DNA from: an uncultured Candidatus Saccharibacteria bacterium
GTDB taxonomy: Bacteria; Patescibacteriota; UBA1384; DTJR01
Reading direction: 5' to 3'
DNA length: 64,000 nucleotides
Assembly: GCA_964580065.1 (NCBI GenBank)
Contig: CAZOJE010000001.1
Coordinates: forward strand, 87,717-151,716
Positions 25,048 to 42,771 of this stretch are shown in pieces. Below the pieces are notes generated by a model. It had not been told where the DNA came from and made no database searches. It was given only the letters and a program-made list of their open reading frames with translations. Position numbers and translations under genes: made by a program. How positions within the stretch are numbered: position 1 is the stretch's first letter; every line of letters starts with the position of its first letter.

Positions 25048-28000
25048 ATGAATTCAGATAAACCACAAGATTTAAATCAAATAGAAAACAAAACCCTGTT
25101 TTTTGCTTCGAGGCACGCAGCTTTTTTTAGGTCTCTCGGTCGCTTTGTTCGTAAAGGCGCTCGGATTGGACGGATAAAAGTGGGGCCGAAATCGGTTTTA
25201 GCGGTTTTGTTGGTTGTGTCAATTGCATATATTCTTGCCCCTTTTCAATCTAAAGCCGGCTATAGTTTTCAGGCAAATTATGATGACGGTAGCTTGGACG
25301 CTTATAACGCCCTTGGTTCGAGAACGGCTGGTACCGACACCTCCTTGCCGTCTTTGAACGCTTCCGGTTATAACAGTACCAATTCTTTGTCGTATTCCTA
25401 CGATGGCACCAGCACTCTTAAATACGCTACCGCCTCCAATCTTCCCACTGATAAGGGCTCGGTCGAAATGAAGTTCCAAAAGAGTGCTTATGGCAATAAT
25501 GCCGATCAAGACAAGGGGAGTATGTATCGTCCGTCGGGCATCGCTTACGATCCCGCCACCCAATATATTTATACGGCCGACCGTCAGAACCACCGCATTA
25601 TCAAAACTAAAATTGACGGGACCGACTGGACAACTTTCGGGCATTACGGTACCGGTACGGGGGAATTTAGCTATCCCTCTGATGTGGCCATAGATTCATC
25701 AACGGGATTTATCTTTGTAAAAGACTCGTGTAACGGTAGAGTTGTAAAAACTAAATTTGATGGCACGGGCTGGCAAACTTTGACGGGATTCTCGACTACC
25801 GAATGTAACACTAGAAATCTTGGCTGGTATCACGAAAATGAGCATCGCATTTACTACGATTCAGCCAGTGAATACATTTATTCTGTTAGCGCTGCTGGCT
25901 CAATCGTTAAATCAAAAATTGACGGCACAGGTCGAACCACTCTATCCAGTTTTGGTGGGCATAAAATGCCTGCTGATATATCGGGTCTGACTTATGACAG
26001 CGCTTCGGGTTATCTCTTCGCTACCACTACTAATGGTCATTTAGTGCGGACTAAAGAAGATGGTACAGATTGGTCTGATGTTACTGGACTAAATACTACT
26101 GCTACCGGTAGCATTTTCTACGATCCGGTAAGCACTTATCTGTATATTGCTAACTCCAATAGCGGCCAGATTGTCAAATGCTATTACGATGGTTCAAGTT
26201 GGCAGACTTTGGGCGGTTTTTCCTTCCCTACTAGTGTCTTTGTCGATACCGCCTCTGGCATGATGTATGTGTCAAATTCAAGCGGCCATAATATCATTAA
26301 AACAGCTGATTTCAGCACTACCGGCTGGACGGCTTATGGGAGCTATTATAATAATTTGATGAAGTTTGGTGGAGGCGCGGGGTCTGGCTACGATGATAAT
26401 CCTGGCGTTTCATATGACCCATCAACTGGGTATTTATATATCGCTGACAATCCCAGATGTCGAATTATCAAAACTAAAATGGATGGTACAGGCTGGCAAG
26501 CTTATGGCACCTGTGGCTCAGGTGTTGGCCAATTTAAATATCCGTCCGGTGTATTTTATGACAGTAGCTCTGGCTATATTTATGTGGGAGACCGTGGAAA
26601 CAGTCGGCTTGTCAAAACAAAAATTGATGGCACTGGCTGGACCGCATTGAATGTTAGTGAAGGTTTTATGGGAATTTTTTACGATTCAGCCACTGATTAT
26701 ATATATTATACGGATTATAATTATTTGAAAAAAACGAAAATTGATGGGACGGGATCAGGCTCTTTGGCTGGATTTAATCAACCGATTAATATTTTTTATG
26801 ATATAGCTAGTGATCCCAGCCATGATGGGAGTGGTGATTTTTACATTGCCAATAAAGGAGCCAATAATATTATCAAAACTAAATTTAATGGGACTGGCTG
26901 GACAGCTTACGGTACAAACGGCAGCGGCACAGGACAATTCAGTTCTCCCAAAGGTGTTAGCTACGATTCGTCAACCGGCTTTTTATATGTAAGCGATGCC
27001 GGAAATTATCGCATGGTGAAAACAAAATTAGATGGTAGCTGGACTGGTTGGACGGCTTATGGTGCTAGTGGCGGTGGAACGGGGCAGTTTAATAGCAACA
27101 AATGCTTGAGCTACGATAGTTCGTCTAGCAATCTTTATATTTACGACCAAAATAATTATCGCATTGTAAAAATCAGTGATTCTTTGGATGGCACCGGTTG
27201 GCAGACGACAAGCGATTATACTGCCAAGGAAAAGATTCTCTTCTCTGCTCAAGCTACTGATGATTCGCGATTAGTCTATGATGTTGCTTCGCGCAAATTG
27301 CGCTTTTATCTGGCTTATTCCAATAAAGCCCAATTCGTCGAGACCCCGACGCTTAATCTAACCGATGGCCAGTGGTACACGGTCAAGGCCTCATTCAATA
27401 AAGCCGCTCATACGCTTTCTATCGATCTTGACGGTACCAATCAGGCGACCGCAACTTACGATAGCGATTGGGGCAGCTTAAGCTTTGGCACTTACTTCTA
27501 TATCGGCGCTCGTAATGCTTCGACTACTGATCGTTGGGACGGCATGATTGATGATATAAATGTTGATATTCAGGCAGTTGATACGACCGATCCAGCTAAT
27601 CCGACCGCGGCACATGTTTATTCTTCTTCTGATCTTCAGACTGAATATAATAGTGGCGGCTGGGGTTCGGATAATGATCCGTATATCACTTTTTCCGGAG
27701 CGGCCGACGATGATAGCGGTCTAAAAGGATATTACATATATTTTGGCACTTCTAATGCGGCTGATCCGGTGACAACTTCGGGAGTTTTGGAGTCCGGAGG
27801 TGCTTTTCACTATCAAGACCATTCTGGGGCGGACGATGCTGTCCAAACGGTGCAAGTACCTACCGACGCTTTGGCCGATGGCTCAACATATTATCTTTTA
27901 ATAAAAACACAAGATACGGATTTAAATGTTTCTGATAACGCGGCCGGCTTATTTACTTTTAAATCTGATGTGACAAACCCTAGCGCCAATCCTTCCACTT

Positions 28001-30453
28001 TTGCGGGTTATGATACTTCGGCAAAAGCAAATGAGCTTGAAACGGGCCATTGGTATAATTACGCCCACCCATATTTTGAATGGTCGGGTGCGACTGACGC
28101 TGGTTCGGGCATTTACGGATATTATGTTTATTTTGGCACCAATGTTGATGCTAATCCTGTGGTTAGCGGCTCGCTCGTTACAAGCGCTAGTTATACTTAT
28201 TCAGGAACAGTAGCAAACGGCTCGACATATTATTTGCGTGTAAAGGCGGCCGATTTTGCCCTAAATACCTTTGCTGAAGCAACGACTGCATTTACCTATA
28301 AATACACTAATGATGCTCCAGGAGGCCCAACAATCTCTGGTTGGGACACTTCGGCTAAAGAAAATGCGATTTTAAGTGACGCGTGGTATGGCTATAATGC
28401 ACCGCATTTTGAATGGCTCGGCTCAACCTCTACTTCCGGCATTGCTGGCTATTATGTTTATTTTGGCTCAAACGGATCTGCCAATCCAGAAGTAGATGGG
28501 TCTTGGCAAACATCTACTAGTTACGATGTTTCTTCGCAAATGTCTGCTGGCTCAACTTATTATTTACGTATTCAATCAAAAGATAACGCTAACAATATTT
28601 CGTCTGCGATACAGTTTGTTTACAAATTTGACAACCAGTCGCCCAGTAGTAATCCGACAAGTTTCAAAGGATATAGCGATTCCCAAAAAACTGCTACTTT
28701 GACTTCGGATAACTGGTATAATATCGCTCAACCATATTTTGAATGGGACGGGGCGGTAGATTCCCATTCTGGCATTAAGGGCTATTGGGTTTATTTTGGT
28801 ACTGACGCCGACGCGGTCCCTTCAACGGCTGGAACTTTTCAAACGGCGGTCAGTAAAACTATTAGTCAAACGTTAACTTCTGGAACAACTTATTATTTCA
28901 TTCTCCAGTCTGAAAATAATGCTGGTAATAAAATCGCTCGTACCAGTTATTTCACATATAAGTTTGATAGTGCGGCGCCGACAATGGCAGAGCTGATAAA
29001 TGTTTCGCCGGTAGGTTGTTCGATTCAACCGACTTTTTCGATGAGCTGGGACGCGGCAGTTGATCCGGCGCCGGGTTCAGGATTTAAAACTTATCAATAT
29101 AAAATAGGGTCAACTGGAACAACGCACGACTTATCGGCTGTTTCCATTGACGTGCCTAGCTATCAAGACGGCGATAATGTCTTTTATCTGCGTGGCGTTG
29201 ATAATGCCGGCAATATTTCTAATTGGCAAACGGGTGTGTATTGTTCAACGGGTGTGGCGCATATTATTGACGGGCCAAACGTTAAGGCCGGACCGGCCTC
29301 GTTAACGGTTTCATGGACATCATCAAAACCGACCAAGGGCTCGGTGGTAGTTTATGAGGGAAATGAATACTTAACCGAACAAACTGGCGGGGAATTTGAC
29401 ATCAATCACAATGTCAAAGTGGTTGGTTTGGAACCGGAAAAATCATATCGCTATCAGTTGAAATGGTACGATGCTTCGGGAAATTCGGGCGTTTCTGATT
29501 GGTTTACGACTACTACGACAACAGCGCCGTCTATAGAGAATTTCAATGTTGCGGTTTTATCAACGGATAGAGCAATTTTTAGCTGGAGTACAAGTGAAAA
29601 TGCTACCTCAACCTTAACATATGGTAAAGATATTTTGGACACGACTATTGTTATCGCCGGAACAGCGACTTCATTCAGCCGAGAAATAACTGGCTTAACT
29701 GGCGGAACAACTTATCAGGTGAGAATAAATGCTCGAACAGTTGATGAGTTCCCGTTTTATTATGTTGCAAGCTTTTCAACTCCACCGCTACCAATTATTA
29801 CCGGATTAAAATTTGAACCTGTTAGCGGTCAGGCAGAAACAACGGTGAGCGTTACTTGGGCAACTAATGTCGAAACTACTTCGGCGCTTTTTTACGGGCC
29901 TAAAGGTGAAAACAAAAAAGAAATTTCTTCTATCGAAAAAACAAAAGATCATTCGATGGAAATTAAGGGATTATTAGATTCGACAAGCTATGAAATATAT
30001 GCCGTCGGCACAGACCAATACGGCAATATAGCCCAATCGGAAACTAATACATTTATGACGCCGAATGACACAAGACCACCGAAAATTTCGGCTATCTCTA
30101 CCGAAACATCTAACGTTGGCTTGGATAAGCAAGACCAAGCACAGATTGTCGTTAGCTGGAGAACAGACGAATTGTCAACAAGTTATGTTGAATATGACGA
30201 AGGATTATCAGGGGCAGAATACAAGAACAAAACTTCCGAAAATAAAGCTTTAACGAATAGTCATTTAGTTGTCGTAACCGCTTTAAAACCCGGCCAGCCC
30301 TATCACTTGCGCGTTTCTTCGGCCGATAAAGCGGGCAATTTAGTTTCAAGCGAGGATATAACAATAGTAACCGGAGACGTTCCGAAGTCGGTATTTAGTA
30401 TTCTTATCGGCACTTTGGAAAATATTTTTGGCTGGCTAAGTAGTGCTCTCTGA
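25048..30453 (+). CDS. Giant (1801-aa) cell-surface protein: N-terminal TM/signal, ~12 NHL-type beta-propeller repeats, LamG/ConA-like domain, multiple FN3-like domains, C-terminal TM anchor
   Basis: Repeats of the form Y(I/L)Y(V/I)(A/S)D…N(H/R)R(I/L)(I/V)KTK(I/F)DGTGW; …NVDIQ… LamG-like segment; repeated …YYVYFGT… FN3-like modules; C-terminal hydrophobic SVFSILIGTLENIFGWL. Confidence 0.65.
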   Translation: MNSDKPQDLNQIENKTLFFASRHAAFFRSLGRFVRKGARIGRIKVGPKSVLAVLLVVSIAYILAPFQSKAGYSFQANYDDGSLDAYNALGSRTAGTDTSLPSLNASGYNSTNSLSYSYDGTSTLKYATASNLPTDKGSVEMKFQKSAYGNNADQDKGSMYRPSGIAYDPATQYIYTADRQNHRIIKTKIDGTDWTTFGHYGTGTGEFSYPSDVAIDSSTGFIFVKDSCNGRVVKTKFDGTGWQTLTGFSTTECNTRNLGWYHENEHRIYYDSASEYIYSVSAAGSIVKSKIDGTGRTTLSSFGGHKMPADISGLTYDSASGYLFATTTNGHLVRTKEDGTDWSDVTGLNTTATGSIFYDPVSTYLYIANSNSGQIVKCYYDGSSWQTLGGFSFPTSVFVDTASGMMYVSNSSGHNIIKTADFSTTGWTAYGSYYNNLMKFGGGAGSGYDDNPGVSYDPSTGYLYIADNPRCRIIKTKMDGTGWQAYGTCGSGVGQFKYPSGVFYDSSSGYIYVGDRGNSRLVKTKIDGTGWTALNVSEGFMGIFYDSATDYIYYTDYNYLKKTKIDGTGSGSLAGFNQPINIFYDIASDPSHDGSGDFYIANKGANNIIKTKFNGTGWTAYGTNGSGTGQFSSPKGVSYDSSTGFLYVSDAGNYRMVKTKLDGSWTGWTAYGASGGGTGQFNSNKCLSYDSSSSNLYIYDQNNYRIVKISDSLDGTGWQTTSDYTAKEKILFSAQATDDSRLVYDVASRKLRFYLAYSNKAQFVETPTLNLTDGQWYTVKASFNKAAHTLSIDLDGTNQATATYDSDWGSLSFGTYFYIGARNASTTDRWDGMIDDINVDIQAVDTTDPANPTAAHVYSSSDLQTEYNSGGWGSDNDPYITFSGAADDDSGLKGYYIYFGTSNAADPVTTSGVLESGGAFHYQDHSGADDAVQTVQVPTDALADGSTYYLLIKTQDTDLNVSDNAAGLFTFKSDVTNPSANPSTFAGYDTSAKANELETGHWYNYAHPYFEWSGATDAGSGIYGYYVYFGTNVDANPVVSGSLVTSASYTYSGTVANGSTYYLRVKAADFALNTFAEATTAFTYKYTNDAPGGPTISGWDTSAKENAILSDAWYGYNAPHFEWLGSTSTSGIAGYYVYFGSNGSANPEVDGSWQTSTSYDVSSQMSAGSTYYLRIQSKDNANNISSAIQFVYKFDNQSPSSNPTSFKGYSDSQKTATLTSDNWYNIAQPYFEWDGAVDSHSGIKGYWVYFGTDADAVPSTAGTFQTAVSKTISQTLTSGTTYYFILQSENNAGNKIARTSYFTYKFDSAAPTMAELINVSPVGCSIQPTFSMSWDAAVDPAPGSGFKTYQYKIGSTGTTHDLSAVSIDVPSYQDGDNVFYLRGVDNAGNISNWQTGVYCSTGVAHIIDGPNVKAGPASLTVSWTSSKPTKGSVVVYEGNEYLTEQTGGEFDINHNVKVVGLEPEKSYRYQLKWYDASGNSGVSDWFTTTTTTAPSIENFNVAVLSTDRAIFSWSTSENATSTLTYGKDILDTTIVIAGTATSFSREITGLTGGTTYQVRINARTVDEFPFYYVASFSTPPLPIITGLKFEPVSGQAETTVSVTWATNVETTSALFYGPKGENKKEISSIEKTKDHSMEIKGLLDSTSYEIYAVGTDQYGNIAQSETNTFMTPNDTRPPKISAISTETSNVGLDKQDQAQIVVSWRTDELSTSYVEYDEGLSGAEYKNKTSENKALTNSHLVVVTALKPGQPYHLRVSSADKAGNLVSSEDITIVTGDVPKSVFSILIGTLENIFGWLSSAL

Positions 30454-30464
30454 AGCATATATTT

Positions 30465-31124
30465 ATGAGCGAATCATTAAATATAAATAAAAAAAGAAAT
30501 TTTTGGTTGATGCTGGCGCTAGTTTTAACGATTGGTATTGTGGCGGGCTGGTTTAGCAGAGGATGGGTGAAAGCGAGAGGAGAAGATATTGATTCATCAG
30601 TTTCGGAATCTGCCACAGCCGCTCCAGTCAACCCAATCGTCACTCCTAATTCAAACGAGACAGTAATTGTTTATGGTGGTGAATATGATAATTGGCAGAA
30701 GTTCACTAGCGCGGATTATCCTTTTACATTGAATTATCCTTCTGGCTGGATGCAGGAAGATAGCGGAACAGACGTAATAGAAATAACGACGCCAGACGAA
30801 AAATATCAATTAAAAATTGCTGTAAAAGCGAATTTGGCAAAGGAAAATTTTTCGCCCCTTGATCAGATCGTTAAGGGTGAATTGCAATCGGTTGGTTCGC
30901 TAACCATAGCACAAACGCCGATTGATAAGGAAGGGCTTTTTGTCGATGGTAAATCAAAACAGTATTTTTATGCCCGCGAGGGCAAGGTATTAAAGGGCGA
31001 GAAATATTTATTTTCTGCTACCTTTCTTCCGGTTGACTCAAAAAACATCAAGGATATTGATTTAGAAGCGTTCGATTATCGTGCTTTAGCGGAAAAAACC
31101 TTAAAATCAATCGAGCTTAAATAG
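30465..31124 (+). CDS. Hypothetical membrane-anchored extracytoplasmic protein
   Basis: N-terminal TM FWLMLALVLTIGIVAGWF, then soluble domain; no recognised motifs. Confidence 0.35.
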   Translation: MSESLNINKKRNFWLMLALVLTIGIVAGWFSRGWVKARGEDIDSSVSESATAAPVNPIVTPNSNETVIVYGGEYDNWQKFTSADYPFTLNYPSGWMQEDSGTDVIEITTPDEKYQLKIAVKANLAKENFSPLDQIVKGELQSVGSLTIAQTPIDKEGLFVDGKSKQYFYAREGKVLKGEKYLFSATFLPVDSKNIKDIDLEAFDYRALAEKTLKSIELK

Positions 31125-31126
31125 CG

Positions 31127-31810
31127 CTACTTAAAAAAATCCTGGTCGTAAAGCCAACACCAACCGTTGTCAGTTTGCACGAAATAGGCGGGCCTTTTTT
31201 GATTCTCCGTTTTATTACCGTCGACAAATTTATATATAAAATTAACGGTTAAGACATTATTATAATTTTTCGCCAAAAGCTTTGAATAGTATGAATTTGT
31301 TTGGGCAATTTCGTAAGACACGTCGGCAAGATTTAGGCCAAGCTTTTTGCTTTTAAGCTGCCAGCCGTTGGCTTGCGATAAATAATCCTCTTCCGATATT
31401 TTTGATTTTAATCCATCGTCAATAGATTCATAATTTTTTCTAAAAAGGTTGAGCTTGAGATTGCGGGCAAAATCTTGCAAAAATATCCCCGAACCGTGAT
31501 TGATTGAAATTTCAACATATTTTTTCCGGCCGACTTCAAAGTTTAAAGGTGCAAAAGACTGTTGATCGTTTATTTGAATAGTTTTATTTCGGCTGGGATT
31601 GTATTGGTTGATTGTGAAATTGCCTTTTTCGTCGGGTTTAATTGTCTGATTATTATAAACAAGTTCAATATTTTTACCAATGGCTTGGCCACTATTTGCG
31701 TCAATGATTTTTCCGCTCAAGGAATAGCTTTTAGTACAGAAAAAGTAAACGCATGCGGCACAAACTAAAATTAATTCGACTGTTAAGACAGATTTTGTAA
31801 TTTTTTCCAT
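31127..31810 (-). CDS. Hypothetical membrane protein (start chosen at internal Met to avoid 97-nt overlap)
   Basis: TM segment LTVELILVCAACVYFF; otherwise unrecognised. Confidence 0.3.
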   Translation of the reverse strand: MEKITKSVLTVELILVCAACVYFFCTKSYSLSGKIIDANSGQAIGKNIELVYNNQTIKPDEKGNFTINQYNPSRNKTIQINDQQSFAPLNFEVGRKKYVEISINHGSGIFLQDFARNLKLNLFRKNYESIDDGLKSKISEEDYLSQANGWQLKSKKLGLNLADVSYEIAQTNSYYSKLLAKNYNNVLTVNFIYKFVDGNKTENQKRPAYFVQTDNGWCWLYDQDFFK

Positions 31811-34047
31811 TTTCTCCTTGTGTAAATAACTACTCCTATAAGCGATAGCAAAATTATGGGCAAAACTATTCTTAACCAAATTGGTATGATGTAAATTTTA
31901 GCTCCGTAAATCGGCCCCGAATTTGCCTGATTTTTTTCAATGTTTAAAAGCAGCATGTGCGGTCCGTCGGCAATGGCATCGTCAAATTTAACATTCCATT
32001 TTCCTTGACTGTCGGAAACAGTCTTCTTTTCATATGATTTACTAAAGATCGTAATCGAAACATTTGCGTGAGATGCGGTCGTGCCGCTAACGATCAAGGG
32101 CTTGCCACTAAAAAGAACGATCAGCTTTTCAGGGTTTTTAATCTGGCGATTGTTAATTTTTAAAACAAGTGTATTTTTTTCAATTTTGTTTTTGAAATCA
32201 TTATCAACTTGGTTAATTTTATCCCTTATTTTCGCTAGATTTTCGGGATTTTGGGCGAATTGAGAAATAATATTTTCGGTTAATTCACTGATTGTTTGTG
32301 TGGCGGGACACTCTGCTGATGACGAAGTGGTTGGTGAACATTTTTCGCACGGCTGACAAGTGGCCGATAGGGGATCAACGTCATAAACAACAGCATAAAG
32401 ATCTTCCGGAGATAGTTTGTTGCCAGCATTATCAGCGACATTTATAGAAATAGCTACGGGATTATCGGCACTAAAAGGATTAACGGGCTTAATCTTGATT
32501 AAATAATCCGAAGCATCGCCGCTATAAGTAAAACTGTTTTGTCCAAGCAAAGTGTAGGTGTCTTCGCCGATAACTACTAAAAGGGTGTCTAAATTAACAC
32601 CGACTCCCGTATCGGAAACGTGAAAAGAAATTGTTTCATACGGACTAATATCGTTAGCCCCTTTTGGCGGGTTCCAGCGGTCAACGGTTGGTCCAATAGT
32701 ATCTTCGGTAAAAAAGCTCCAGTTATAATTAGCCATGACATTGGCTGGCGAAGTGTTATCGGCAACATTTTTGACCGTCACCAAAACCTGTTCGCTTTGG
32801 CTGAAATTTTCACTTGGATTGATGACGACGTCATAGGCCCAAATCAGCCCGTTATTAGTTAAACCGGTGCAAACGGTGTTGGTGTCTCCGCATATATAAG
32901 TATGAATTCCCTTTTGGCTAGTAACGTCAACGGAAATTGTGCTTGGGTTAATGCCAACGCCGTGAGTGCCATTTACGGCGACAGAAGTTTTTACATCTTT
33001 TATTTGGAAAGAGATGTTGGTGTCAATATTTTCCGCTGATCCGGTCGGCGAAGCGTTTGTTAAAGTAGGCGCGTCAACATCATTTTCGGTTGTAAAAGTG
33101 AAAGTGACCGGATCCATTGTATTCGGCCCGGCTGGGGATTGGTTTGCTGAAGCTTTATCTTGAGCGTCTTGAATTTTTACGGTGTAGCTTGTTTGGTAAT
33201 TCCAGTTGCGGTTGCCAATATCGGACGGGTTTATTGTCACAAGACAATCATTTGTCGCCCAAAGACCGCTGCAAGAAGTTGTAACCCAGCTATTGCGATT
33301 AACGTTTGCGCCGCCAGATTCTTGAATAAAAATATTAGATGTTGAAATATTAACGCCGGTTTCGTCGTCCTTCAAATGAAAAGTGATATTACTTTCAACC
33401 GGAACATTTTGGGCACCGTCGGCATAATTTAAAGAATCGACATAAGGTTTGTCTGTGTCGGGAAGTAATTGCCAATTAGAATTTTCCACTGAAGACAATA
33501 TATCTTGAGAGTCGCCAGAGCGAACAATATTGCTGTCGATAGTTGAGCCCGATGTGAAATCAATGGTAGTTGAAAGAGAACTGGCCTTTTGGGCAAGCAC
33601 AGTGAAACTAATTGTGCCAAAAACACCTGCTCCGGCATAATTAGCGCCGCTTGTGTTGGCGCCAGTCAACCTAATTACTCCACCGGCGACGGTGTTGCCG
33701 GAATCAGGGTAACTTTCGTATAAAGTGCCGGCGGAAATTTGGGTTCCTGTAACGGCCGGCTTGCTGTCGTTGACTGTAAGGTAATTTGTATCGTAGTTGA
33801 TGATAATGTTGGCGCTTTTAGTGTCGACTGCGCCAGTGGAAATCATAATTTTAGCGTCAAAAGTTTGCCCGACGTAAAATTTATTAAGTGTGCCATTACC
33901 GTCGCCTGAACAATCGCCACCGGTAACGGGGGAGACACAAAGCTCAAAATATGGTGCTGTAGGTGAGGCGGCGCTTGCATATAACGGCATTGCTAAATTA
34001 GCGACGAGCAAAAAAGTTTGCAAAAATATCAAAAATTTAGTTTTCAT
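31783..34047 (-). CDS. Large secreted, C-terminally membrane-anchored surface protein with Ig-like repeats
   Basis: Signal peptide (MKTKFLIFLQTFLLVANLAMPLYASA), beta-rich repeats, C-terminal TM (IVLPIILLSLIGVVIYT) + basic tail. Confidence 0.45.
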   Translation of the reverse strand: MKTKFLIFLQTFLLVANLAMPLYASAASPTAPYFELCVSPVTGGDCSGDGNGTLNKFYVGQTFDAKIMISTGAVDTKSANIIINYDTNYLTVNDSKPAVTGTQISAGTLYESYPDSGNTVAGGVIRLTGANTSGANYAGAGVFGTISFTVLAQKASSLSTTIDFTSGSTIDSNIVRSGDSQDILSSVENSNWQLLPDTDKPYVDSLNYADGAQNVPVESNITFHLKDDETGVNISTSNIFIQESGGANVNRNSWVTTSCSGLWATNDCLVTINPSDIGNRNWNYQTSYTVKIQDAQDKASANQSPAGPNTMDPVTFTFTTENDVDAPTLTNASPTGSAENIDTNISFQIKDVKTSVAVNGTHGVGINPSTISVDVTSQKGIHTYICGDTNTVCTGLTNNGLIWAYDVVINPSENFSQSEQVLVTVKNVADNTSPANVMANYNWSFFTEDTIGPTVDRWNPPKGANDISPYETISFHVSDTGVGVNLDTLLVVIGEDTYTLLGQNSFTYSGDASDYLIKIKPVNPFSADNPVAISINVADNAGNKLSPEDLYAVVYDVDPLSATCQPCEKCSPTTSSSAECPATQTISELTENIISQFAQNPENLAKIRDKINQVDNDFKNKIEKNTLVLKINNRQIKNPEKLIVLFSGKPLIVSGTTASHANVSITIFSKSYEKKTVSDSQGKWNVKFDDAIADGPHMLLLNIEKNQANSGPIYGAKIYIIPIWLRIVLPIILLSLIGVVIYTRRKWKKLQNLS

Positions 34048-34762
34048 TAAAGCCGTCCCCAGTTTTATCCAAATTTTCGATTAAAATCCCTAAATCGACT
34101 GCGTTAACAATGCCATCTTTGTTGACGTCTTGCTTTTCGACAGCGCTTGAAGCGTCTAGCTTTTCGATTTCGATCGCTAAATCAATCGAATTTATAATAT
34201 CGTCACCCCTCTTCCAAGCGTCCTGACTGTCTAAAATATTAACGTCACCAGCAAGCAGATACTCGGTGTCGGCCGAAGAAAAATCGATAAAATTATTGCC
34301 GTTTACGATACTTACGTTTGTTTTCCTTTTGTTGAGATGGGAATATCCTTTGGCATAAATATCATAAGTTCCTTCCGTGATATTGGTGAGCGGTTCGGGA
34401 TTATCATGTAAACCGTTTTGATCTGTATCGAATTGCTGGCTGTAAACTACGCTGCTGGTGCCAGCATTTTTTATTTCAATTACGACGTGGCTGGAGTAGT
34501 TATTGCTTGAAGGGCTTATTTTCTCGGGTATGGCTTTAAAGGTAAAAGAGCTGCCGCCGACATGCACGGAAATTCCTAGTGACCCGTCATCACCTTTGGC
34601 AAGATTTTGATCACAAAAAACACCTAGAGCAACGCCCAAAACCACTAATACAAACGTAATTTTATATTTGCGTGCCAATTTTTCCTTGTATAAATTATAC
34701 CAGAGATTTTTTATGTGTTGTTGGCGATTGGGTCTGTTGCGCGAATATAACTTGTAGCTCAT
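34037..34762 (-). CDS. Membrane-anchored protein with C-terminal dockerin-type Ca-binding repeats
   Basis: Two D-x-N-x-D-G-x-(I/V)-N-x-x-D-like repeats (DVNILDSQDAWKRGDDIINSIDL… and DVNKDGIVNAVDLGILIENL). Confidence 0.5.
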   Translation of the reverse strand: MSYKLYSRNRPNRQQHIKNLWYNLYKEKLARKYKITFVLVVLGVALGVFCDQNLAKGDDGSLGISVHVGGSSFTFKAIPEKISPSSNNYSSHVVIEIKNAGTSSVVYSQQFDTDQNGLHDNPEPLTNITEGTYDIYAKGYSHLNKRKTNVSIVNGNNFIDFSSADTEYLLAGDVNILDSQDAWKRGDDIINSIDLAIEIEKLDASSAVEKQDVNKDGIVNAVDLGILIENLDKTGDGFNEN

Positions 34763-34789: not shown

Positions 34790-34836
34790 CCAATATGTAT
34801 CGAAACTTATGCGTCTTTCTTCTCTTTAAAAACAAA
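34790..34836 (-). terminator. Rho-independent terminator (minus strand) of the GC-rich two-gene unit
   Basis: Minus-strand reading: GCCCCTGCATGCG…CGTGTGCGGGGGC hairpin followed by TTTTGTTTTT. Confidence 0.5.
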
Positions 34837-34937
34837 AGCCCCCGCACACGTTGGCCAGTGTTGGCTAACGCATGCAGGGGCTTGGTCTTTCGGTTGCAGG
34901 GGATCGGTAACGGCAAAATCCCTGGGAGTTGGTGCTA

Positions 34938-35534
34938 TTACTTGCGACCGAGGATTATCCCCGTATCGCTGCACCACAATTTCCCTACGGATCGGGCCAC
35001 GATAGTGGCTCGAGAGGAGCGGCAGAAGCGGCACGGCACCAGCAACCCCTTTTCGCTATGCAGAAGCGAGTTGGGGTCTGTTGCGGTTACATACTGGAGA
35101 CCACTCTGCTCGAACTCAAGCCACGGCAGCTCGCACGTTAGGAACGGAAAGAGCAGGTGCTCGTATCCACTCTCTTCAACGAGCTGCTTGAGCTCCTCGT
35201 AGTTTTCTACTACTGGGAGGTTGAGCTTCAGGTCAACAAGCCTCCCATTCTCGTCAGTAACTACTTTGAGTTTTCCGTAGTCACCGTCTACCGGGATGTC
35301 GAGCTTCCCGATAGCCACCGGTCTCTTTACAAGGCCTTCCGGCCATGCGGCGAGGCCTTTGCGTGAACGCCATGCGTGGTCAGAGGGGTGAGGAACGAAA
35401 GCGTCTGGCGGTATACTATCACCGCCAAAGGAGTAGCGGATATTTGCCATGATCTTGGCGATCCGATCGGGATCGCCACTCTTCCCGAAGTCGACCCCAA
35501 CTTCTCCTTCCCAGATAATCTTGATCCCGGCCAT
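34938..35534 (-). CDS. Hypothetical protein, compositionally foreign (GC-rich) ORF A
   Basis: 198-aa ORF with G/C-ending codons throughout; no recognisable motif; second gene of a minus-strand pair. Confidence 0.5.
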   Translation of the reverse strand: MAGIKIIWEGEVGVDFGKSGDPDRIAKIMANIRYSFGGDSIPPDAFVPHPSDHAWRSRKGLAAWPEGLVKRPVAIGKLDIPVDGDYGKLKVVTDENGRLVDLKLNLPVVENYEELKQLVEESGYEHLLFPFLTCELPWLEFEQSGLQYVTATDPNSLLHSEKGLLVPCRFCRSSRATIVARSVGKLWCSDTGIILGRK

Positions 35535-35613
35535 ACAAACGTCTCCTTTCTCTTTCCGTCGTTTTTGCAGCCACTGCCGGTCAAACAGGGAACGCTTTCA
35601 TGCGCCTAAGGCA

Positions 35614-36141
35614 TCAAACTCTTCGCGATACTTGTGGGGAGCCAGGCAGGGCGCCGTTGCCGCCCCAGACGCCGGTGGCAAAGTCGAGTCCGAACCCGAA
35701 GTAGACCGGGCCGAGGCCGAGGCAGAACGGGCGGAAGCGGCCGTCGAGCCGCCAGAGCTCTTCGTTGCTCTGGCGCAAGGCGACTAACCACCTCATGCCC
35801 AGCTCGTAGAGCCCGTTGCGGATCTGCTCCGGCTCGTTCTCCGGCAGCGCCAGTGAGGCGATCTCGACCGGCCAGCTGAATCCAATGCCCGAGGCCTCCT
35901 GCTTCTGCCGGCCTTGCGCCGTGTTGAATTCCTGGTGATCCCAGAGAATCGGGAGGGTTGCTGCCTCAACGACTCCGGTCTGACCGCCGTTCCACAACCC
36001 CATCAGCTCTTCCGGCCACTTGGCGATGTCGGGATTGCTTTCGGGCAGTAACCCGACCGCCTGCTTGGGCGTAAGACCGTAATCGATCTTGACGCCCTTC
36101 AGCTGGTAAGCCGGCTGGGGTAAAACCAATCGTGCGCCCAT
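35614..36141 (-). CDS. Hypothetical protein, compositionally foreign (GC-rich) ORF B
   Basis: 175-aa ORF, same strand and composition as ORF A, 79-nt spacer; no recognisable motif. Confidence 0.5.
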   Translation of the reverse strand: MGARLVLPQPAYQLKGVKIDYGLTPKQAVGLLPESNPDIAKWPEELMGLWNGGQTGVVEAATLPILWDHQEFNTAQGRQKQEASGIGFSWPVEIASLALPENEPEQIRNGLYELGMRWLVALRQSNEELWRLDGRFRPFCLGLGPVYFGFGLDFATGVWGGNGALPGSPQVSRRV

Positions 36142-36182
36142 GTGAACCGTCTCTCTTTCGCGAAGCTTTTTTGGGGGCTTTG

Positions 36183-36233
36183 TTGGTAACTGCTTTCAGC
36201 GCACAAATTATTTTCGCTGAAAGCAGTTACCAA
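36183..36233. promoter_or_regulatory. 19-bp perfect inverted repeat (13-nt loop) in the 5' leader of ORF B
   Basis: TTGGTAACTGCTTTCAGCG-cacaaattatttt-CGCTGAAAGCAGTTACCAA; no flanking U-tract on either strand, so not a classic terminator. Confidence 0.4.
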
Positions 36234-36267
36234 TCTATAAGTATTGTAAATGTTCGAATAACAGGAG

Positions 36268-36296
36268 AATGTAGTAAATTGCAGCCTGTTTGTCAA
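36268..36296 (-). promoter_or_regulatory. Candidate sigma70-like promoter for ORF B/ORF A (minus strand)
   Basis: Minus-strand TTGACA-17 nt-TACATT. Confidence 0.3.
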
Positions 36297-36805
36297 CGAT
36301 TGTATTTAATGACAAGCATCTTCGCAATAGGCCGGTAGCTTTTGCTCGTTTCAAATGATGTACTAAAAATGATAAGAAACCCTTTGAACGCTAGACTTGT
36401 TTGAACGGCACGGCAAAATTTGAGAACAATTTAGCGAATTTGACGAAAATAAATTATAAAAGTATTGGATAACCGAATTTATTAAAAACGAAATTCGGAC
36501 TTATTTTGAAAAGAAAAACTCCGAAACAACAAATACATCATAGCGTGTTTTCTTCTGTTGGAGCTTCTACCTTCGCTCTTCGAGCTACGGATAGACAGGC
36601 GGGCGGAGCAAGGCGGCGCCCTCGCAAACAAAAAATTTTTTTATTTATGGCCGTGGCATCTCGAGGGTGGAACTAGAGATCTTTTTGTTTAAAAAACGGC
36701 CGAAAATTTGAAGTTTGAATTGGGAAGGAGGAAGAAAAGGTTGAAAAAAGAAAATAATTGGTAAATAATGAAATCAAACAGGACAATTATTGAGGAAGGA
36801 AAAAT

Positions 36806-38830
36806 ATGCCAGTTGAGTCAGGCCCGGGACCAAAATTTCTAGAACAAAAATACTATTTGCACAATAGCGACGAAGTTAAATCTGCGAAAAAACGGAGCGA
36901 AGTTCGAGATGGCGAGGAAATCAGACAAAATCCAGATGAGCTAATTCAAAATTATTTGGATCGCTTCAAAGAGATTACAGACCGAACCGATCCGGAAAAA
37001 CGCCAGCGAGGCATTGAAGCACTAAAAAAAGTTTTACATGATAAATTTATTGTCAAACCGGAAGAGATTCCAGAAAGCTACTGGGAATCGCAAAAACGAA
37101 TTATCCGCGAACGGGGCCAAGGCGCTGACTTGGAGCAAGCTGATTGGAATGAACTCAAAAGACAAAACACTGAAGCAATAATTGCAGATCAAAACTCATC
37201 ACTTGATAACTGGATTGATTATCTAACATCACCCGATGCAACCTATCCTGACTGGCTAAAATATTTTGCTTTTCGCAGCATTACAACAATGGGCGGCTTT
37301 GACAAAGAGCGATATGTTTTTTCCAAACGCTCGACTGGTACAACCAAGCCATTTCCAGATATCAATCGTGAGGCCTTGGCATATGTGCTTGATGCAGTTG
37401 AAAAAGGTCAAAGCCAGAAGTATTTTGATTCAAAAGAGAGTGTTCGACAGCTAAAGAATCAAATCAAAAAATTAAAAGGCGAACAAAGAAGCGGCGCAAC
37501 AATCCAAGAAGTGGAGATCTCAAATCTACAGGATAAAATATCTGAGGAGGAGAAGAGGCAAAAAGAGATTGTATTTGGCGCTTTGGCAGAAGAAAGCTCC
37601 GATGAGGAGCTATCGACGCTTCTTCGCGATCAAGATTTTGCCAAACTCTACGCTTGGGCAATTGAAAAAGTTACTCCGGCTTCAGTTGAACAAATCACAG
37701 TAACCGAAGGCAAGTGGGTTAAATACGACCAAGGATCCGACCATATGCCTTTAGTTCAGTCGCTACAGGGACATGGAACCGGCTGGTGCACCGCCGGAGA
37801 ATCGACAGCCAAAACCCAACTTCGCGGGGGAGACTTTTATGTGTACTACTCGCACGATCAACAAGGCCAGCCGACAATTCCGCGTGCCGCTATTCGAATG
37901 GAAGAAGGAAAAATCGCTGAAGTTCGCGGTATTGCTGCAGAACAAAACCTCGACCCATACATTGCTGATGTCGTCCAGGACAAATTACAGGAATTTCCCG
38001 ACGGCAAAGCTTATGAAAAGAAAAATTCTAATATGAAACAATTGACGGAAATCGAGAATAAAATGAGGTCCGGACAAGAACTTTCTAAAGCAGAGTTGGT
38101 TTTTCTTTATGAAATTGATCAACCGATCGAGGGTTTTGGTTATCAGCGCGATCCGAGAATCGAAGAACTTCGTAGCCAGAGAAATGCAACGGAAGACGCA
38201 CCAATAGTATTGGATTGCCAACCGGAAGAGATTGCTCGGAGTGCTGATCAAATACAAGAAAATACCAAATCCTACATTGGACCATTATTTCCGGGAATTT
38301 TTAAGCTACAAAATATTGAAAATATCTACACCTCATTTCCTGAAGGTAAAGTTCGGAAAAGCGAACTGGAGATTGGTGGCAAAACTAAGGTTGAATTAGT
38401 CGCGGAGTTAAAGGCTAGAGGTATAAAAATTTATGATTATGCTCAGGATATGTTAGATAGTCCAGAATTTGCGACTCAATCAAATCCTGAACAAATTGAT
38501 TTAGTCCGCCTAAAGGTTCGAGATTTTGGTTTCCCAAATGGCGCTACGACCGAACAAATTTATGCCAAAGCAGAAGAATTTGGACTTGAACTCTGTCCGG
38601 CGGAAGTCGGACCGCATCAAAGATTAAAAGATTTAGATCAACCGCTAGCTGCCTGGTACAGAATTGCTATGAAGCAAATTTCAGGCCGGAACGGCCTCCC
38701 TAGCGTCTTCGACTTGGGACACAATGACGTCCGCTTGTGGCTCAACTACAGTTGGGCGGTACCTGGCAACGAGTGTGACGCTGGCCTTGTGCTCATGTTC
38801 CGTCTTCGCAAGTTTCCTCAAGAATCTTGA
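36806..38830 (+). CDS. Large (674-aa) cytoplasmic hypothetical protein, no recognisable domains; coiled-coil middle, GC-richer 3' end
   Basis: Good SD (GGAAGGA), no signal peptide/TM; Cys-containing segment …HGTGWCTAGES…; 3'-terminal ~200 nt noticeably GC-richer than neighbours. Confidence 0.55.
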   Translation: MPVESGPGPKFLEQKYYLHNSDEVKSAKKRSEVRDGEEIRQNPDELIQNYLDRFKEITDRTDPEKRQRGIEALKKVLHDKFIVKPEEIPESYWESQKRIIRERGQGADLEQADWNELKRQNTEAIIADQNSSLDNWIDYLTSPDATYPDWLKYFAFRSITTMGGFDKERYVFSKRSTGTTKPFPDINREALAYVLDAVEKGQSQKYFDSKESVRQLKNQIKKLKGEQRSGATIQEVEISNLQDKISEEEKRQKEIVFGALAEESSDEELSTLLRDQDFAKLYAWAIEKVTPASVEQITVTEGKWVKYDQGSDHMPLVQSLQGHGTGWCTAGESTAKTQLRGGDFYVYYSHDQQGQPTIPRAAIRMEEGKIAEVRGIAAEQNLDPYIADVVQDKLQEFPDGKAYEKKNSNMKQLTEIENKMRSGQELSKAELVFLYEIDQPIEGFGYQRDPRIEELRSQRNATEDAPIVLDCQPEEIARSADQIQENTKSYIGPLFPGIFKLQNIENIYTSFPEGKVRKSELEIGGKTKVELVAELKARGIKIYDYAQDMLDSPEFATQSNPEQIDLVRLKVRDFGFPNGATTEQIYAKAEEFGLELCPAEVGPHQRLKDLDQPLAAWYRIAMKQISGRNGLPSVFDLGHNDVRLWLNYSWAVPGNECDAGLVLMFRLRKFPQES

Positions 38831-38922
38831 CTTCTAATACACAGAAGAGCGTGAGCCGAACCAAATTGGCGGTTGGCTCGGCGAGCATTTCAACTTTCAA
38901 AAATTTTTCAAAAAGTATGAAT

Positions 38923-38998
38923 TGGTCGGGCCAGCGAGACTCGAACTCGCGACCTCCGGACCCCCAGCCCGGCGCACTACCAACTGTGCTATAGCCCG
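38923..38998 (-). tRNA. tRNA-Pro (anticodon GGG)
   Basis: Minus strand cloverleaf: acceptor CGGGCUA/UGGCCCG, anticodon arm CCGGG-CUGGGGG-UCCGG, T-loop GUUCGAGUC, 3' CCA. Confidence 0.75.
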
Positions 38999-41800: not shown

Positions 41801-41875
41801 GCCAACGTAGCTCAGCGGTAGAGCAGCTGTTTTGTAAACAGCAGGTCGTGGGTTCAAATCCCTCCGTTGGCTCCA
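41801..41875 (+). tRNA. tRNA-Thr (anticodon UGU)
   Basis: Acceptor GCCAACG/CGUUGGC, anticodon arm GCUGU-UUUGUAA-ACAGC, GGTTCAAATCC T-arm, CCA. Confidence 0.75.
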
Positions 41876-41882
41876 GAGAAAT

Positions 41883-41969
41883 GCCGGGTTGGCAGAGTGG
41901 TCAATTGCATCTGACTGTAAATCAGACGCCCTTGCGGCTACGGTGGTTCGAATCCATCACCCGGCACCA
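41883..41969 (+). tRNA. tRNA-Tyr (anticodon GUA), long variable arm
   Basis: Acceptor GCCGGGU/ACCCGGC, anticodon arm UCUGA-CUGUAAA-UCAGA, 15-nt variable arm, GGTTCGAATCC, CCA. Confidence 0.85.
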
Positions 41970-41976
41970 GAAAGAT

Positions 41977-42106
41977 AGTTGGTTAGTGGTTAGTTTTTAG
42001 TGGTTAGGGGAGAAAAGAGTCAGTAGGTTAGTCGGTTAGCGGGTAGCAAATAGTAAGTTAGTAGGTTAGTGGGTAGCAAATAGTAGGTTAGTTGTTAGTG
42101 GTTAGG
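41977..42106. repeat. Array of ~14 degenerate GGTTAG(T)-type heptamer repeats with a ~30-nt internal duplication, between tRNA-Tyr and tRNA-Thr
   Basis: GGTTAGTGGTTAGTTTTTAGTGGTTAGGGG…GGTTAGTCGGTTAGCGGGTAGCAAATAGTAAGTTAGTAGGTTAGTGGGTAGCAAATAGTAGGTTAGTTGTTAGTGGTTAGG. Confidence 0.6.
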
Positions 42107-42138
42107 AAATACAGAAAAATTCAAAAACTAACCAAAGT

Positions 42139-42214
42139 GCCGAGATAGCTCAGTTGGTAGAGCACATCCATGGTAAGGATGGGGTCAGGGGTCCGAATCC
42201 CCTTCTCGGCTCCA
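42139..42214 (+). tRNA. tRNA-Thr (anticodon GGU)
   Basis: Acceptor GCCGAGA/UCUCGGC, anticodon arm CAUCC-AUGGUAA-GGAUG, GGTCCGAATCC, CCA. Confidence 0.85.
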
Positions 42215-42270
42215 GACAAGTGAATGAGCCGTGAACCCCACGTGTTTATGGCCAAAATAAAAGGAGAATT

Positions 42271-42492
42271 ATGAAAAAATTTTTTACTTCATATGTTTTG
42301 TCGGTTCCGCTGCTACTAGCAGGATTAGTTTGTCTGATCCAAGCAAGTAATAGTTCCTTAACTGTTGCGGCCGACGAGATTAACAGTGGCTCAATGTCGA
42401 GCAGTCGATTGCTGATTGGCACGGGCGTGGTTTTATTTGTTTTGGGGTTTGTTTCAATTGTTTTTAGATTTATGTCAAAGGACAAGAGGTAA
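42271..42492 (+). CDS. Small secreted/membrane protein
   Basis: Signal peptide + C-terminal TM; no motifs. Confidence 0.3.
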   Translation: MKKFFTSYVLSVPLLLAGLVCLIQASNSSLTVAADEINSGSMSSSRLLIGTGVVLFVLGFVSIVFRFMSKDKR

Positions 42493-42494
42493 AA

Positions 42495-42662
42495 ATGGCA
42501 AAAAAAGGAACCAGACTAAATAATCTAGTTTTGGAGTGCACTGTTTGCGGCCGCCGAAACTATGTTTCGGCCAGATCCAATATTCAGCCAATCAAGAAGC
42601 TGGAGCTTAAAAAGCACTGTCTGAACTGTCGCAAGCATACAGCACACAAAGAGTCCAAGTAA
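42495..42662 (+). CDS. rpmG: 50S ribosomal protein L33 (55 aa; absent from ORF track, <60 aa)
   Basis: MAKKGTRLNNLVLECTVCGRRNYVSARSNIQPIKKLELKKHCLNCRKHTAHKESK: two CxxC pairs + KLELKK core typical of L33; sits before tRNA-Trp as in many bacteria. Confidence 0.65.
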   Translation: MAKKGTRLNNLVLECTVCGRRNYVSARSNIQPIKKLELKKHCLNCRKHTAHKESK

Positions 42663-42695
42663 TTTTGGGCTCTTTGTATTAAAATATAGATATGT

Positions 42696-42771
42696 AGGGG
42701 TGTAGCTCAGCTGGTAGAGCGACGGTCTCCAAAACCGCAGGTCGCGGGTTCGAATCCTGCCACCCCTGCCA
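42696..42771 (+). tRNA. tRNA-Trp (anticodon CCA)
   Basis: Acceptor AGGGGUG/CACCCCU, anticodon loop CUCCAAA, GGTTCGAATCC, CCA; one A·C mismatch at top of anticodon stem. Confidence 0.75.

Follow-up and report, generated by a model that had tools for sequence, protein, structure and literature searches.

The subject of this report is a cluster of three protein-coding genes beside a proline tRNA gene in an uncultured Candidatus Saccharibacteria bacterium (GenBank assembly GCA_964580065.1). The stretch analysed, referred to as the window, comprises 64,000 nt of contig CAZOJE010000001.1 (positions 87,717 to 151,716 of the forward strand), and coordinates given without a locus number are positions in this window. 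Two small genes on the minus strand, gene A and gene B, make up a GC-rich block, and the gene of a 674-aa protein lies on the plus strand between this block and tRNA-Pro(GGG). We estimate a probability of roughly 85% that three genes of the type that encodes the variable proteins of diversity-generating retroelements (DGRs) are clustered here without the DGR core, and that the region is not an island brought in by an integrase.

DGRs work through the RNA of a template repeat (TR), which a dedicated reverse transcriptase (RT), aided by the protein Avd, copies into cDNA with errors at adenines only. This cDNA replaces the 3′-terminal variable region (VR) of a target gene, and in this way a set of ligand-contacting residues is rewritten on a fixed scaffold. 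The region contains the following features, with L numbers denoting loci of relatives:

34827-34883, minus strand: hairpin resembling an intrinsic terminator, with a T-run, 3′ of gene B (inverted repeat 34836-34883 by self-blastn)
34938-35534, minus strand: gene B, 198 aa, of a rare GC-rich family
35167-35307, minus strand: imperfect 78-nt (26-aa) tandem repeat within gene B (self-blastn)
35614-36141, minus strand: gene A, 175 aa, a small DGR-type variable protein (family homologues and DGR neighbours in relatives)
35627-35757, minus strand: VR homologue at the 3′ end of gene A (alignment to the TR of L004)
36183-36233, minus strand: conserved 5′-leader hairpin of gene A with a perfect stem of 19 bp (RNAalifold)
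36268-36296, minus strand: promoter-like site of gene A (TTGACA, 17 nt, TACATT)
36487-36559, plus strand: conserved non-coding element of 73 nt upstream of the 674-aa gene (matches in L108 and L008)
36741-36769, plus strand: promoter-like site of the 674-aa gene (TTGAAA, 17 nt, AATAAT)
36806-38830, plus strand: gene of the 674-aa protein, from a very large Patescibacteria family and recurrent DGR target
38678-38813, plus strand: VR homologue at the 3′ end of the 674-aa gene (alignment to the TRs of L008 and L010)
38923-38998, minus strand: tRNA-Pro(GGG) (ARAGORN, Rfam)

Against a mean GC content of 41.1% for the window (standard deviation 2.8%, 1-kb bins), a block of 1.4 kb at about 34800-36200 reaches 52-67% GC, with a peak of 67.5% in 200-nt windows and a value of 59.1% (z = +6.4) in the bin 35001-36000. 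This block is formed by the two co-oriented minus-strand open reading frames (ORFs), gene A and gene B. The GC content at third codon positions (GC3) is 0.795 in gene A (z = +12.7) and 0.643 in gene B (z = +8.0), measured against a mean of 0.384 (standard deviation 0.032) for the other 43 window ORFs of at least 150 aa. With a GC3 of 0.373 (z = -0.3), the 674-aa gene is host-like in composition.

The original prediction, made from the sequence alone, had described everything between a dockerin-protein gene and the minus-strand tRNA-Pro(GGG) as an atypical island. Both boundaries are as described: the 241-aa neighbour protein carries a Dockerin_1 domain (E = 3.4e-5), and the tRNA was called by ARAGORN and Rfam. 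The GC-rich pair is indeed a compositional outlier, but the atypical composition is confined to 34.8-36.2 kb and does not extend to the 674-aa gene. An AT-rich non-coding stretch with hairpins is present (36142-36805), although its length is 664 nt and not 460 nt. It was also correct that the 3′ end of the 674-aa gene is enriched in GC and that the protein lacks a recognisable domain: Pfam, NCBIfam, PADLOC and the PDB gave no meaningful match for the 674-aa protein, and the same holds for the products of gene A and gene B. It is, however, not an orphan, as the size of its family described below demonstrates. In the PHROGs collection, the 674-aa protein found nothing but non-significant matches (E = 0.07-0.1), and neither of the other two proteins had a meaningful match there. 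A lone A2 match to the designed protein 7uek, in which no stretch passed the threshold by itself, was disregarded.

Variable regions in the families of the 674-aa protein and gene A

The 3′ ends of genes from both families are true VRs in many relatives, and both window copies carry a homologous, adenine-depleted VR segment. For the 674-aa protein, at least 2,770 homologues were found among 5.8 billion proteins searched; the best 120 of them share 49-77% identity with it, nearly all of them across at least 92% of the query. Named hosts include Berkelbacteria, Parcubacteria, Roizmanbacteria, Liptonbacteria and others, and a Pfam domain is found in almost none of the family members. In an alignment of 61 sequences, 207 columns are conserved to at least 90%, and the conserved body contains an invariant GTGWC.AG core inside the motif GHGTGWCTAGES. 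The AlphaFold2 model of the window protein has a mean predicted local distance difference test score (pLDDT) of 78.9 overall and exceeds 90 at residues 450-670. With neither a signal peptide nor a membrane segment, the protein looks cytoplasmic, as far as an unaided reading of its hydrophilic N-terminus can tell. It probably couples a predicted variable binding surface to the conserved N-terminal domain that bears the GTGWC.AG core.

Two particular members of the family deserve mention for their context. In Liptonbacteria, a protein of 867 aa (P0047) represents a fusion of a 674-family member to a SpoU methylase domain (PF00588). Furthermore, some family loci occur in metagenome-assembled genomes (MAGs) labelled as Gammaproteobacteria, Ignavibacteriaceae, Chlamydiota or Nanoarchaeota (L025, L029, L065 and L070); these are probably mis-binned or automatically mislabelled Patescibacteria contigs.

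Complete DGR cassettes lie beside close relatives of the 674-aa gene. At L008, whose protein is 73% identical, the target gene is followed by a TR, a bAvd gene and an RVT_1 gene, and at L010 (60% identical) by a TR and an RVT_1 gene. The mismatches between TR and VR fall on TR adenines in 22 of 27 cases at L008 and in 21 of 23 at L010. A survey of the 674 family in named Patescibacteria MAGs covered 80 loci, 31 of which were assessable, their C-terminus being complete and the sequence reaching at least 2.5 kb to either side. An RT, an Avd or an adenine-biased TR was located nearby at 16 of these 31 loci and none of them at the remaining 15. Summed over 27 adenine-biased TR/VR pairs, 549 of 593 mismatches (93%) are on TR adenines.

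The segment 38678-38813 at the 3′ end of the window gene has a GC content of 0.574 and an adenine content of 0.169, compared with 0.423 and 0.348 in the remainder of the gene. It aligns to the TR of L008 (75% identity over 136 nt, E = 2e-26) and to that of L010 (71.5% over 130 nt, E = 1e-20), and the GC-enriched end is therefore a DGR variable region by homology. Across the family, the C-terminus shows scaffold columns conserved to 75-100%, interleaved with columns at 15-37%. The nearest non-identical pairs of family members are 90-96% identical in the body and 49-62% identical in the VR. The 3′ boundary of the VR in the window, TTCCGTCTTCGCAAG, is kept exactly as in relatives with active cassettes.

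Gene A belongs to a much smaller family of 18 members and is 59-77% identical to most of them. Its structure was modelled by AlphaFold2 with a pLDDT of 91 and a predicted template modelling score (pTM) of 0.87. At L004, downstream of a homologue with 64% identity, the 3′ end of the gene recurs as a repeat of 129 nt, and a bAvd gene and an RVT_1 gene come next. Of the 22 mismatches between the two repeat copies, 21 are on adenines of the downstream copy, and since the mismatches concentrate there, the repeat bears the signature of a DGR. Avd, RT or an adenine-biased TR adjoins 7 of 13 gene A loci: TR, Avd and RT together in L004, L098, L100 and L102, and Avd with either RT or TR in L097, L099 and L101. 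Second copies of the gene A 3′ end without adenine bias are found at L098 (55-254, 93.5% identity) and L101 (5474-5673, 100% identity), which suggests duplicated target genes beside one DGR.

The window segment 35627-35757 (minus strand) matches the TR of L004 with 68% identity over 131 nt (E = 1.4e-16). Its adenine content is 0.104, in comparison to 0.215 for the rest of gene A. Where family pairs share at least 90% identity in the N-terminal body (mean 93.5%), the identity of their VRs is 55%. The VR scaffold of the window copy is fully conserved.

Upstream of gene A, the promoter-like site at 36268-36296 agrees with the consensus at 10 of 12 positions. L097-L102 and L104 share with the window the promoter box TTGACAAACAGG and the leader CTGTTATTGAACATT, which are also conserved in L108, where they precede a homologue of gene B. 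The stem of the leader hairpin is 100% complementary. From six distinct loci (window, L005, L015, L097, L098 and L104), RNAalifold predicted 21 pairs, compensatory double changes supporting 5 of them, and not a single pair of the 19-bp core is broken among these loci. The hairpin may be a regulatory element of small DGR targets. At L103, a hairpin of unrelated sequence occupies the same position.

The high GC content of gene A is a property of its family, as most homologues have a GC3 of 0.77-0.85 in hosts with 38-49% GC. Gene-wide adenine depletion was considered as the cause and rejected, given that the coding strand outside the VR contains 0.215 A and 0.167 T. Taken together, the families of gene A and gene B (L004, L005, L015, L097-L104, L107-L111 and the window) have a GC3 of 0.64-0.85 versus about 0.29-0.51 for host genes. 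This elevation persists even at housekeeping-level divergence, and the two genes stay GC-rich in every host.

Gene B as a probable distant member of the gene A type

Relatives of gene B are scarce, with two close ones and 13 among 1.84 billion representative proteins. The homologues have a GC3 of 0.66-0.82 and stand beside genes with a GC3 down to 0.29. No homology between gene A and gene B was detected by BLASTP, and the link between them is seen in profile-profile comparison alone: hhalign aligned the C-terminal ~57 residues of gene B with the VR region of gene A at a probability of 72% (E = 3.5e-5). Profile comparisons of gene A and of gene B with the 674 family were not significant. The last ~45 residues of the gene B family follow a fixed scaffold, L.VP..C...L....W...TG.L.G.K, with variable positions in between. 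The C-terminal region is depleted in adenine (0.178 vs 0.246), and such depletion occurs in all four members for which DNA is available. As mentioned above, the gene B homologue of L108 lies behind a promoter and leader of gene A type. Gene B is therefore probably, as far as sequence comparison goes, a distantly related third variable protein of gene A type. Its status as a DGR target is one we infer, because neither a TR nor an RT was found near gene B homologues in four short loci (L107-L111, contigs of 1-7.6 kb).

The tandem repeat within gene B consists of the segments 35167-35229 and 35245-35307, which are 65% identical. In a strain with ~99% identity (L012), gene B is 26 aa shorter, in frame, at this repeat, and contigs from several sequencing runs (L002/L014, L003) stop exactly at 35288, inside it. 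These breaks are attributed to the polymorphism of the 78-nt repeat. A further variant of the protein (P0140) diverges past residue 143. Downstream of gene B, 128 nt fold with -47 kcal/mol in ViennaRNA, and the core stem of 17 bp is followed by TTTTGTTTTT.

The missing core: relics or remote targets

The components that act beside the relatives are absent from the window. blastn with a word size of 7 found no second copy of the 674 VR or the gene A VR in the 64 kb, and tblastn of the window with three RT and two Avd proteins of relatives had a best E value of 1.5. Among the neighbouring ORFs, Pfam detected no RVT_1 domain. Since TR, Avd and RT are all missing from the window, its target genes are either relics or served from elsewhere, and the retroelement would have been lost from the cluster or physically separated from it. 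The proteins of all three genes would be expected to bind ligands via their variable C-terminal surface.

We lean towards the view that the window VRs are frozen relics of past diversification. For the 674-aa protein as well as the gene A protein, the 3-4 contigs that encode it, drawn from at least three sequencing runs, all give the same sequence, and the 90%-identity cluster of each consists of a single sequence. Moreover, the VR of the 674-aa gene departs from the family scaffold at W657C (TGG to TGT, in a column conserved to 98%), G643R and F663L, which, judged by their sequence, are substitutions beyond the reach of adenine mutagenesis. Invariance across contigs and scaffold changes of a non-adenine type together favour relics.

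A less probable alternative is that the three genes are live targets whose VRs are rewritten in trans by one or more DGRs located in another part of this genome. None of the three ORFs is disrupted, the gene A scaffold and the 3′ boundary of the 674 VR are retained, and both VRs are strongly depleted in adenine, as mutagenised VRs are. Given that about half of the 674-family loci have no adjacent DGR, remote arrangements could be common, and remote targets are recognised in the literature (PMC8144416). On the other hand, the VRs of gene A and the 674-aa gene and the C-terminal region of gene B share no detectable sequence similarity, so that each target would need its own TR. The VRs are also identical on every contig recovered, with three or more sequencing runs represented, the scaffold changes of the 674 VR are not of the adenine type, and the 64 kb around the genes hold no TR, Avd or RT.

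A search for such a TR in trans used a pattern in which each VR base could be itself or A, applied in 66-nt windows. During validation, the cognate TR was recovered by 68 of 73 windows for L010, 61 of 64 for L004 and 1 of 66 for L008. Scans of genome and metagenome collections returned 0 matches; even the VR of the window itself was not recovered, as the source genome is outside those collections, and the scans are for this reason uninformative.

Several points weigh against our interpretation of the cluster. The collection scans neither confirm nor exclude a DGR acting in trans, and with no cognate TR for the window VRs, adenine-specific mutagenesis is not demonstrable for these particular copies. 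The membership of gene B hangs on a single profile-profile match of moderate probability. Scaffold departures of the 674-aa protein are not significantly enriched in the VR, with 3 of 15 positions there and 20 of 309 elsewhere (Fisher p = 0.08). The invariance of the two proteins has to be read with the bias of identity look-ups towards identical copies and with the collapse of minority variants in assemblies. Finally, the suggestion of a C-type lectin fold by Foldseek is weak, as there was no match at E <= 0.001 and the best probability was 0.77.

Possible cassette exchange, islands and known systems

For gene A and gene B, a more far-reaching proposal can be made, which we regard as doubtful: both could belong to a distinct class of self-contained mini cassettes for variable proteins which are shuffled or exchanged at a preferred site 3′ of tRNA-Pro(GGG) without an integrase. 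Each cassette would comprise its own promoter, a conserved leader hairpin and a VR-bearing domain of ~170 aa. Active maintenance would keep their composition GC-rich (GC3 0.64-0.85) in AT-rich Patescibacteria, and exchange would perhaps be aided by a dispersed repeat that brackets the DGR cassette of L008. If true, this would imply an integrase-free mechanism for the mobilisation or maintenance of DGR targets.

The repeat in question has a homologue in the non-coding gap of the window, where the promoter-like site of the 674-aa gene (36741-36769, 10 of 12 consensus positions) is also located. The 73-nt element at 36487-36559 is 90% identical to L108 111-183, upstream of a gene B homologue, and is also homologous to three segments of L008 (93-145, 4371-4417 in inverted orientation, and 8807-8842). 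The L008 locus has inverted-repeat arms at 93-329 and 4423-4197, 92% identical over 238 nt, which enclose the whole cassette of target, TR, Avd and RT, and the 73-nt element corresponds to the outer end of this inverted repeat. A third, partial copy of the repeat is found at the end of the L008 contig (8791-8845). Flanking inverted repeats were considered as a general feature of DGR cassettes and rejected, being present at 3 of 24 cassettes.

The surroundings of the genes vary between genomes. Genes of gene A or gene B type are located 3′ of tRNA-Pro(GGG) in three genomes: the tRNA lies at 35-110 in L005, beside a gene A homologue, and at 6236-6311 in L109 and 1387-1462 in L110, each beside a gene B homologue. 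A contig of 1.7 kb that stems from another sequencing project (L003) matches the window at 99.9% identity in gene A and the intergenic region up to 36769, and its nt 1-227 encode a different gene, with a protein starting MPNPEAPIYAPGSEQTELPK, in place of the 674-aa gene. The change of sequence at ~36770, at the 3′ edge of the promoter-like site of the 674-aa gene, reflects either genuine recombination or a chimeric assembly. A search for synteny in relatives revealed no clean empty site, and the L003 junction was the alternative arrangement found. The recurrence at tRNA-Pro(GGG), the varied neighbourhoods of gene A and the L003 junction leave room for local cassette turnover. As separate observations, an M50-family peptidase gene lies near tRNA-Pro(GGG) in the window, L109 and L110, and the first ~16 nt past the tRNA are conserved between the window and L109 (ATTCATACTTTTTGAA vs TTCCATACTTTTTGAA).

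According to the original prediction, the region was an acquired island at the 3′ end of tRNA-Pro(GGG) with dark defence or toxin cargo, its integrase lost or located outside the window. We consider this improbable. It would account for the GC3 of gene A and gene B at 8-13 standard deviations above other window genes, for the position of such genes 3′ of the same tRNA in three genomes, for the 99.9% identical cassette beside a different gene in L003, and for the several unrelated neighbourhoods of gene A. No integrase, recombinase or transposase was found by Pfam scans of the island ORFs and ten flanking ORFs, in agreement with the prediction; the flanking ORFs contain housekeeping and surface-protein domains only. 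The expected attachment site (att) repeat of the tRNA 3′ end did not turn up either, as a search of the 64 kb with up to 3 mismatches in 17 or 32 nt returned the tRNA itself only. Defence or toxin cargo received no support, with no PADLOC match at E <= 1 for any of the three proteins, and phage relatives were not found for gene A in IMG/VR or for any of the three proteins in INPHARED. The 674-aa gene, which adjoins the tRNA, is host-like in composition and comes from a widespread Patescibacteria family, and the high GC content of gene A is the family trait described above.

Evidence against recent acquisition is also provided by a related host. In L005, gene A lies directly 3′ of tRNA-Pro(GGG), near genes for MnmA, a YgjP-like protein and an Exo_endo_phos protein that are also present in the window, and the 674-aa gene and gene B are absent there. 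The nucleotide identity to the window is 76% for gene A and 66-72% for housekeeping genes. As its divergence from L005 is about that of the housekeeping genes, gene A would have been inherited rather than recently acquired. The prediction had also considered that a larger element might have supplied the cargo cassette, its integrase having been lost or lying outside; this comes near to the cluster of DGR targets preferred here, except that the missing partner is the DGR core and not an integrase.

That the GC-rich block might contain no protein genes but a structured non-coding RNA, or might have arisen as an assembly artefact, is suggested by the frequent occurrence of structured RNAs as GC-rich islands in AT-rich genomes and by the contigs that break at 35288, but it is extremely unlikely, because an Rfam scan of 33-40 kb had the tRNA as its sole match at E <= 1 and no structured RNA in the block, both ORFs have protein homologues of conserved length and the coding-sequence pattern GC3 > GC1 > GC2, the gene A model is of high confidence (pLDDT 91), an independent assembly (L013) covers the block identically, and the breaks are attributed to the repeat polymorphism in gene B.

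The first survey of the variable proteins of Patescibacteria DGRs is reportedly that of Paul et al. 2017. DGRs are enriched in the candidate phyla radiation (CPR)/Patescibacteria (PMC11661182, PMC8144416), and a DGR clade restricted to Patescibacteria (clade 2, Roux et al. 2021) has targets without recognisable domains (PMC8144416); remote targets were undetectable by the approach of the survey that described this clade (PMC8144416). The window genes share with this clade the C-terminal VR on a conserved scaffold and, in their relatives, a TR with adenine mismatches, Avd and RVT_1. The 674-aa protein, gene A and gene B are also without a recognisable Pfam domain, like reported CPR targets. They differ from the clade in that three target-type genes are clustered and their copies have no TR, Avd or RT in 64 kb, and in that gene A and gene B are tiny (~175-200 aa), have their own promoter and leader and are GC-rich relative to their hosts. 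The window genes are hence new members of a known category of DGR targets. Three aspects are apparently undescribed in the DGR literature: a core-less cluster of three target-type genes, very small, promoter-equipped and persistently GC-rich targets such as gene A and gene B, and the roughly even split of a very large conserved family, that of the 674-aa protein, into DGR-linked and DGR-less loci.

Well-known variable proteins of DGRs include Mtd of the Bordetella phage BPP-1, a phage tail-fibre protein, and TvpA of Treponema, a surface lipoprotein. By analogy with these, a ligand-binding surface would be expected to arise from the adenine-derived variable C-terminal codons, and the weak structural matches of the 674-aa and gene A models are to C-type lectin domains. 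In contrast to this likeness, sequence similarity to Mtd or TvpA is not detectable, a significant structural match is lacking, and the 674-aa protein, which appears to be cytoplasmic, possesses an extensive conserved N-terminal body. It may also be compared with apparently non-secreted DGR proteins that combine a conserved N-terminus with a variable C-terminal binding domain. This is a likeness of architecture only, and the N-terminal domain of the 674-aa protein matches no known signalling or NTPase family. With integrase-mediated tRNA islands, the region has in common that it abuts a tRNA 3′ end and holds compositionally atypical genes. It differs from them by the lack of an integrase and of an att duplication, by the host-like tRNA-proximal gene, and by an atypical composition that is a family trait instead of a donor signature.

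The reading as a cluster of DGR targets replaces a dark island at a tRNA with a testable identity, namely three hypermutation-target genes minus their mutator. At the same time, one of the most widespread domain-less Patescibacteria families, with its at least 2,770 members, turns out to be a recurrent DGR target. The split of this family makes it suited to the question of whether targets are served in trans or become frozen after loss of the retroelement. It also lends itself to asking which partners a DGR-diversified protein would bind in the cytoplasm of organisms with a lifestyle of attachment to other cells. For annotation, the locus carries a warning: unusual composition next to a tRNA need not signify that an island has integrated there.

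Finally, the flanks of the cluster contain two further groups of genes. A run of predicted surface or adhesion proteins occupies 25048-34762 and includes a 1801-aa protein (NHL, fn3, Laminin_G), a 754-aa Big_5 protein and the 241-aa dockerin protein. In strain L012, the Big_5 and dockerin-like genes are retained beside gene B, and in L005 no such run is found beside gene A. On the other side, a tRNA cluster (Thr-TGT, Tyr-GTA, Thr-GGT and Trp-CCA) is located at 41801-42771, ~3 kb past tRNA-Pro.

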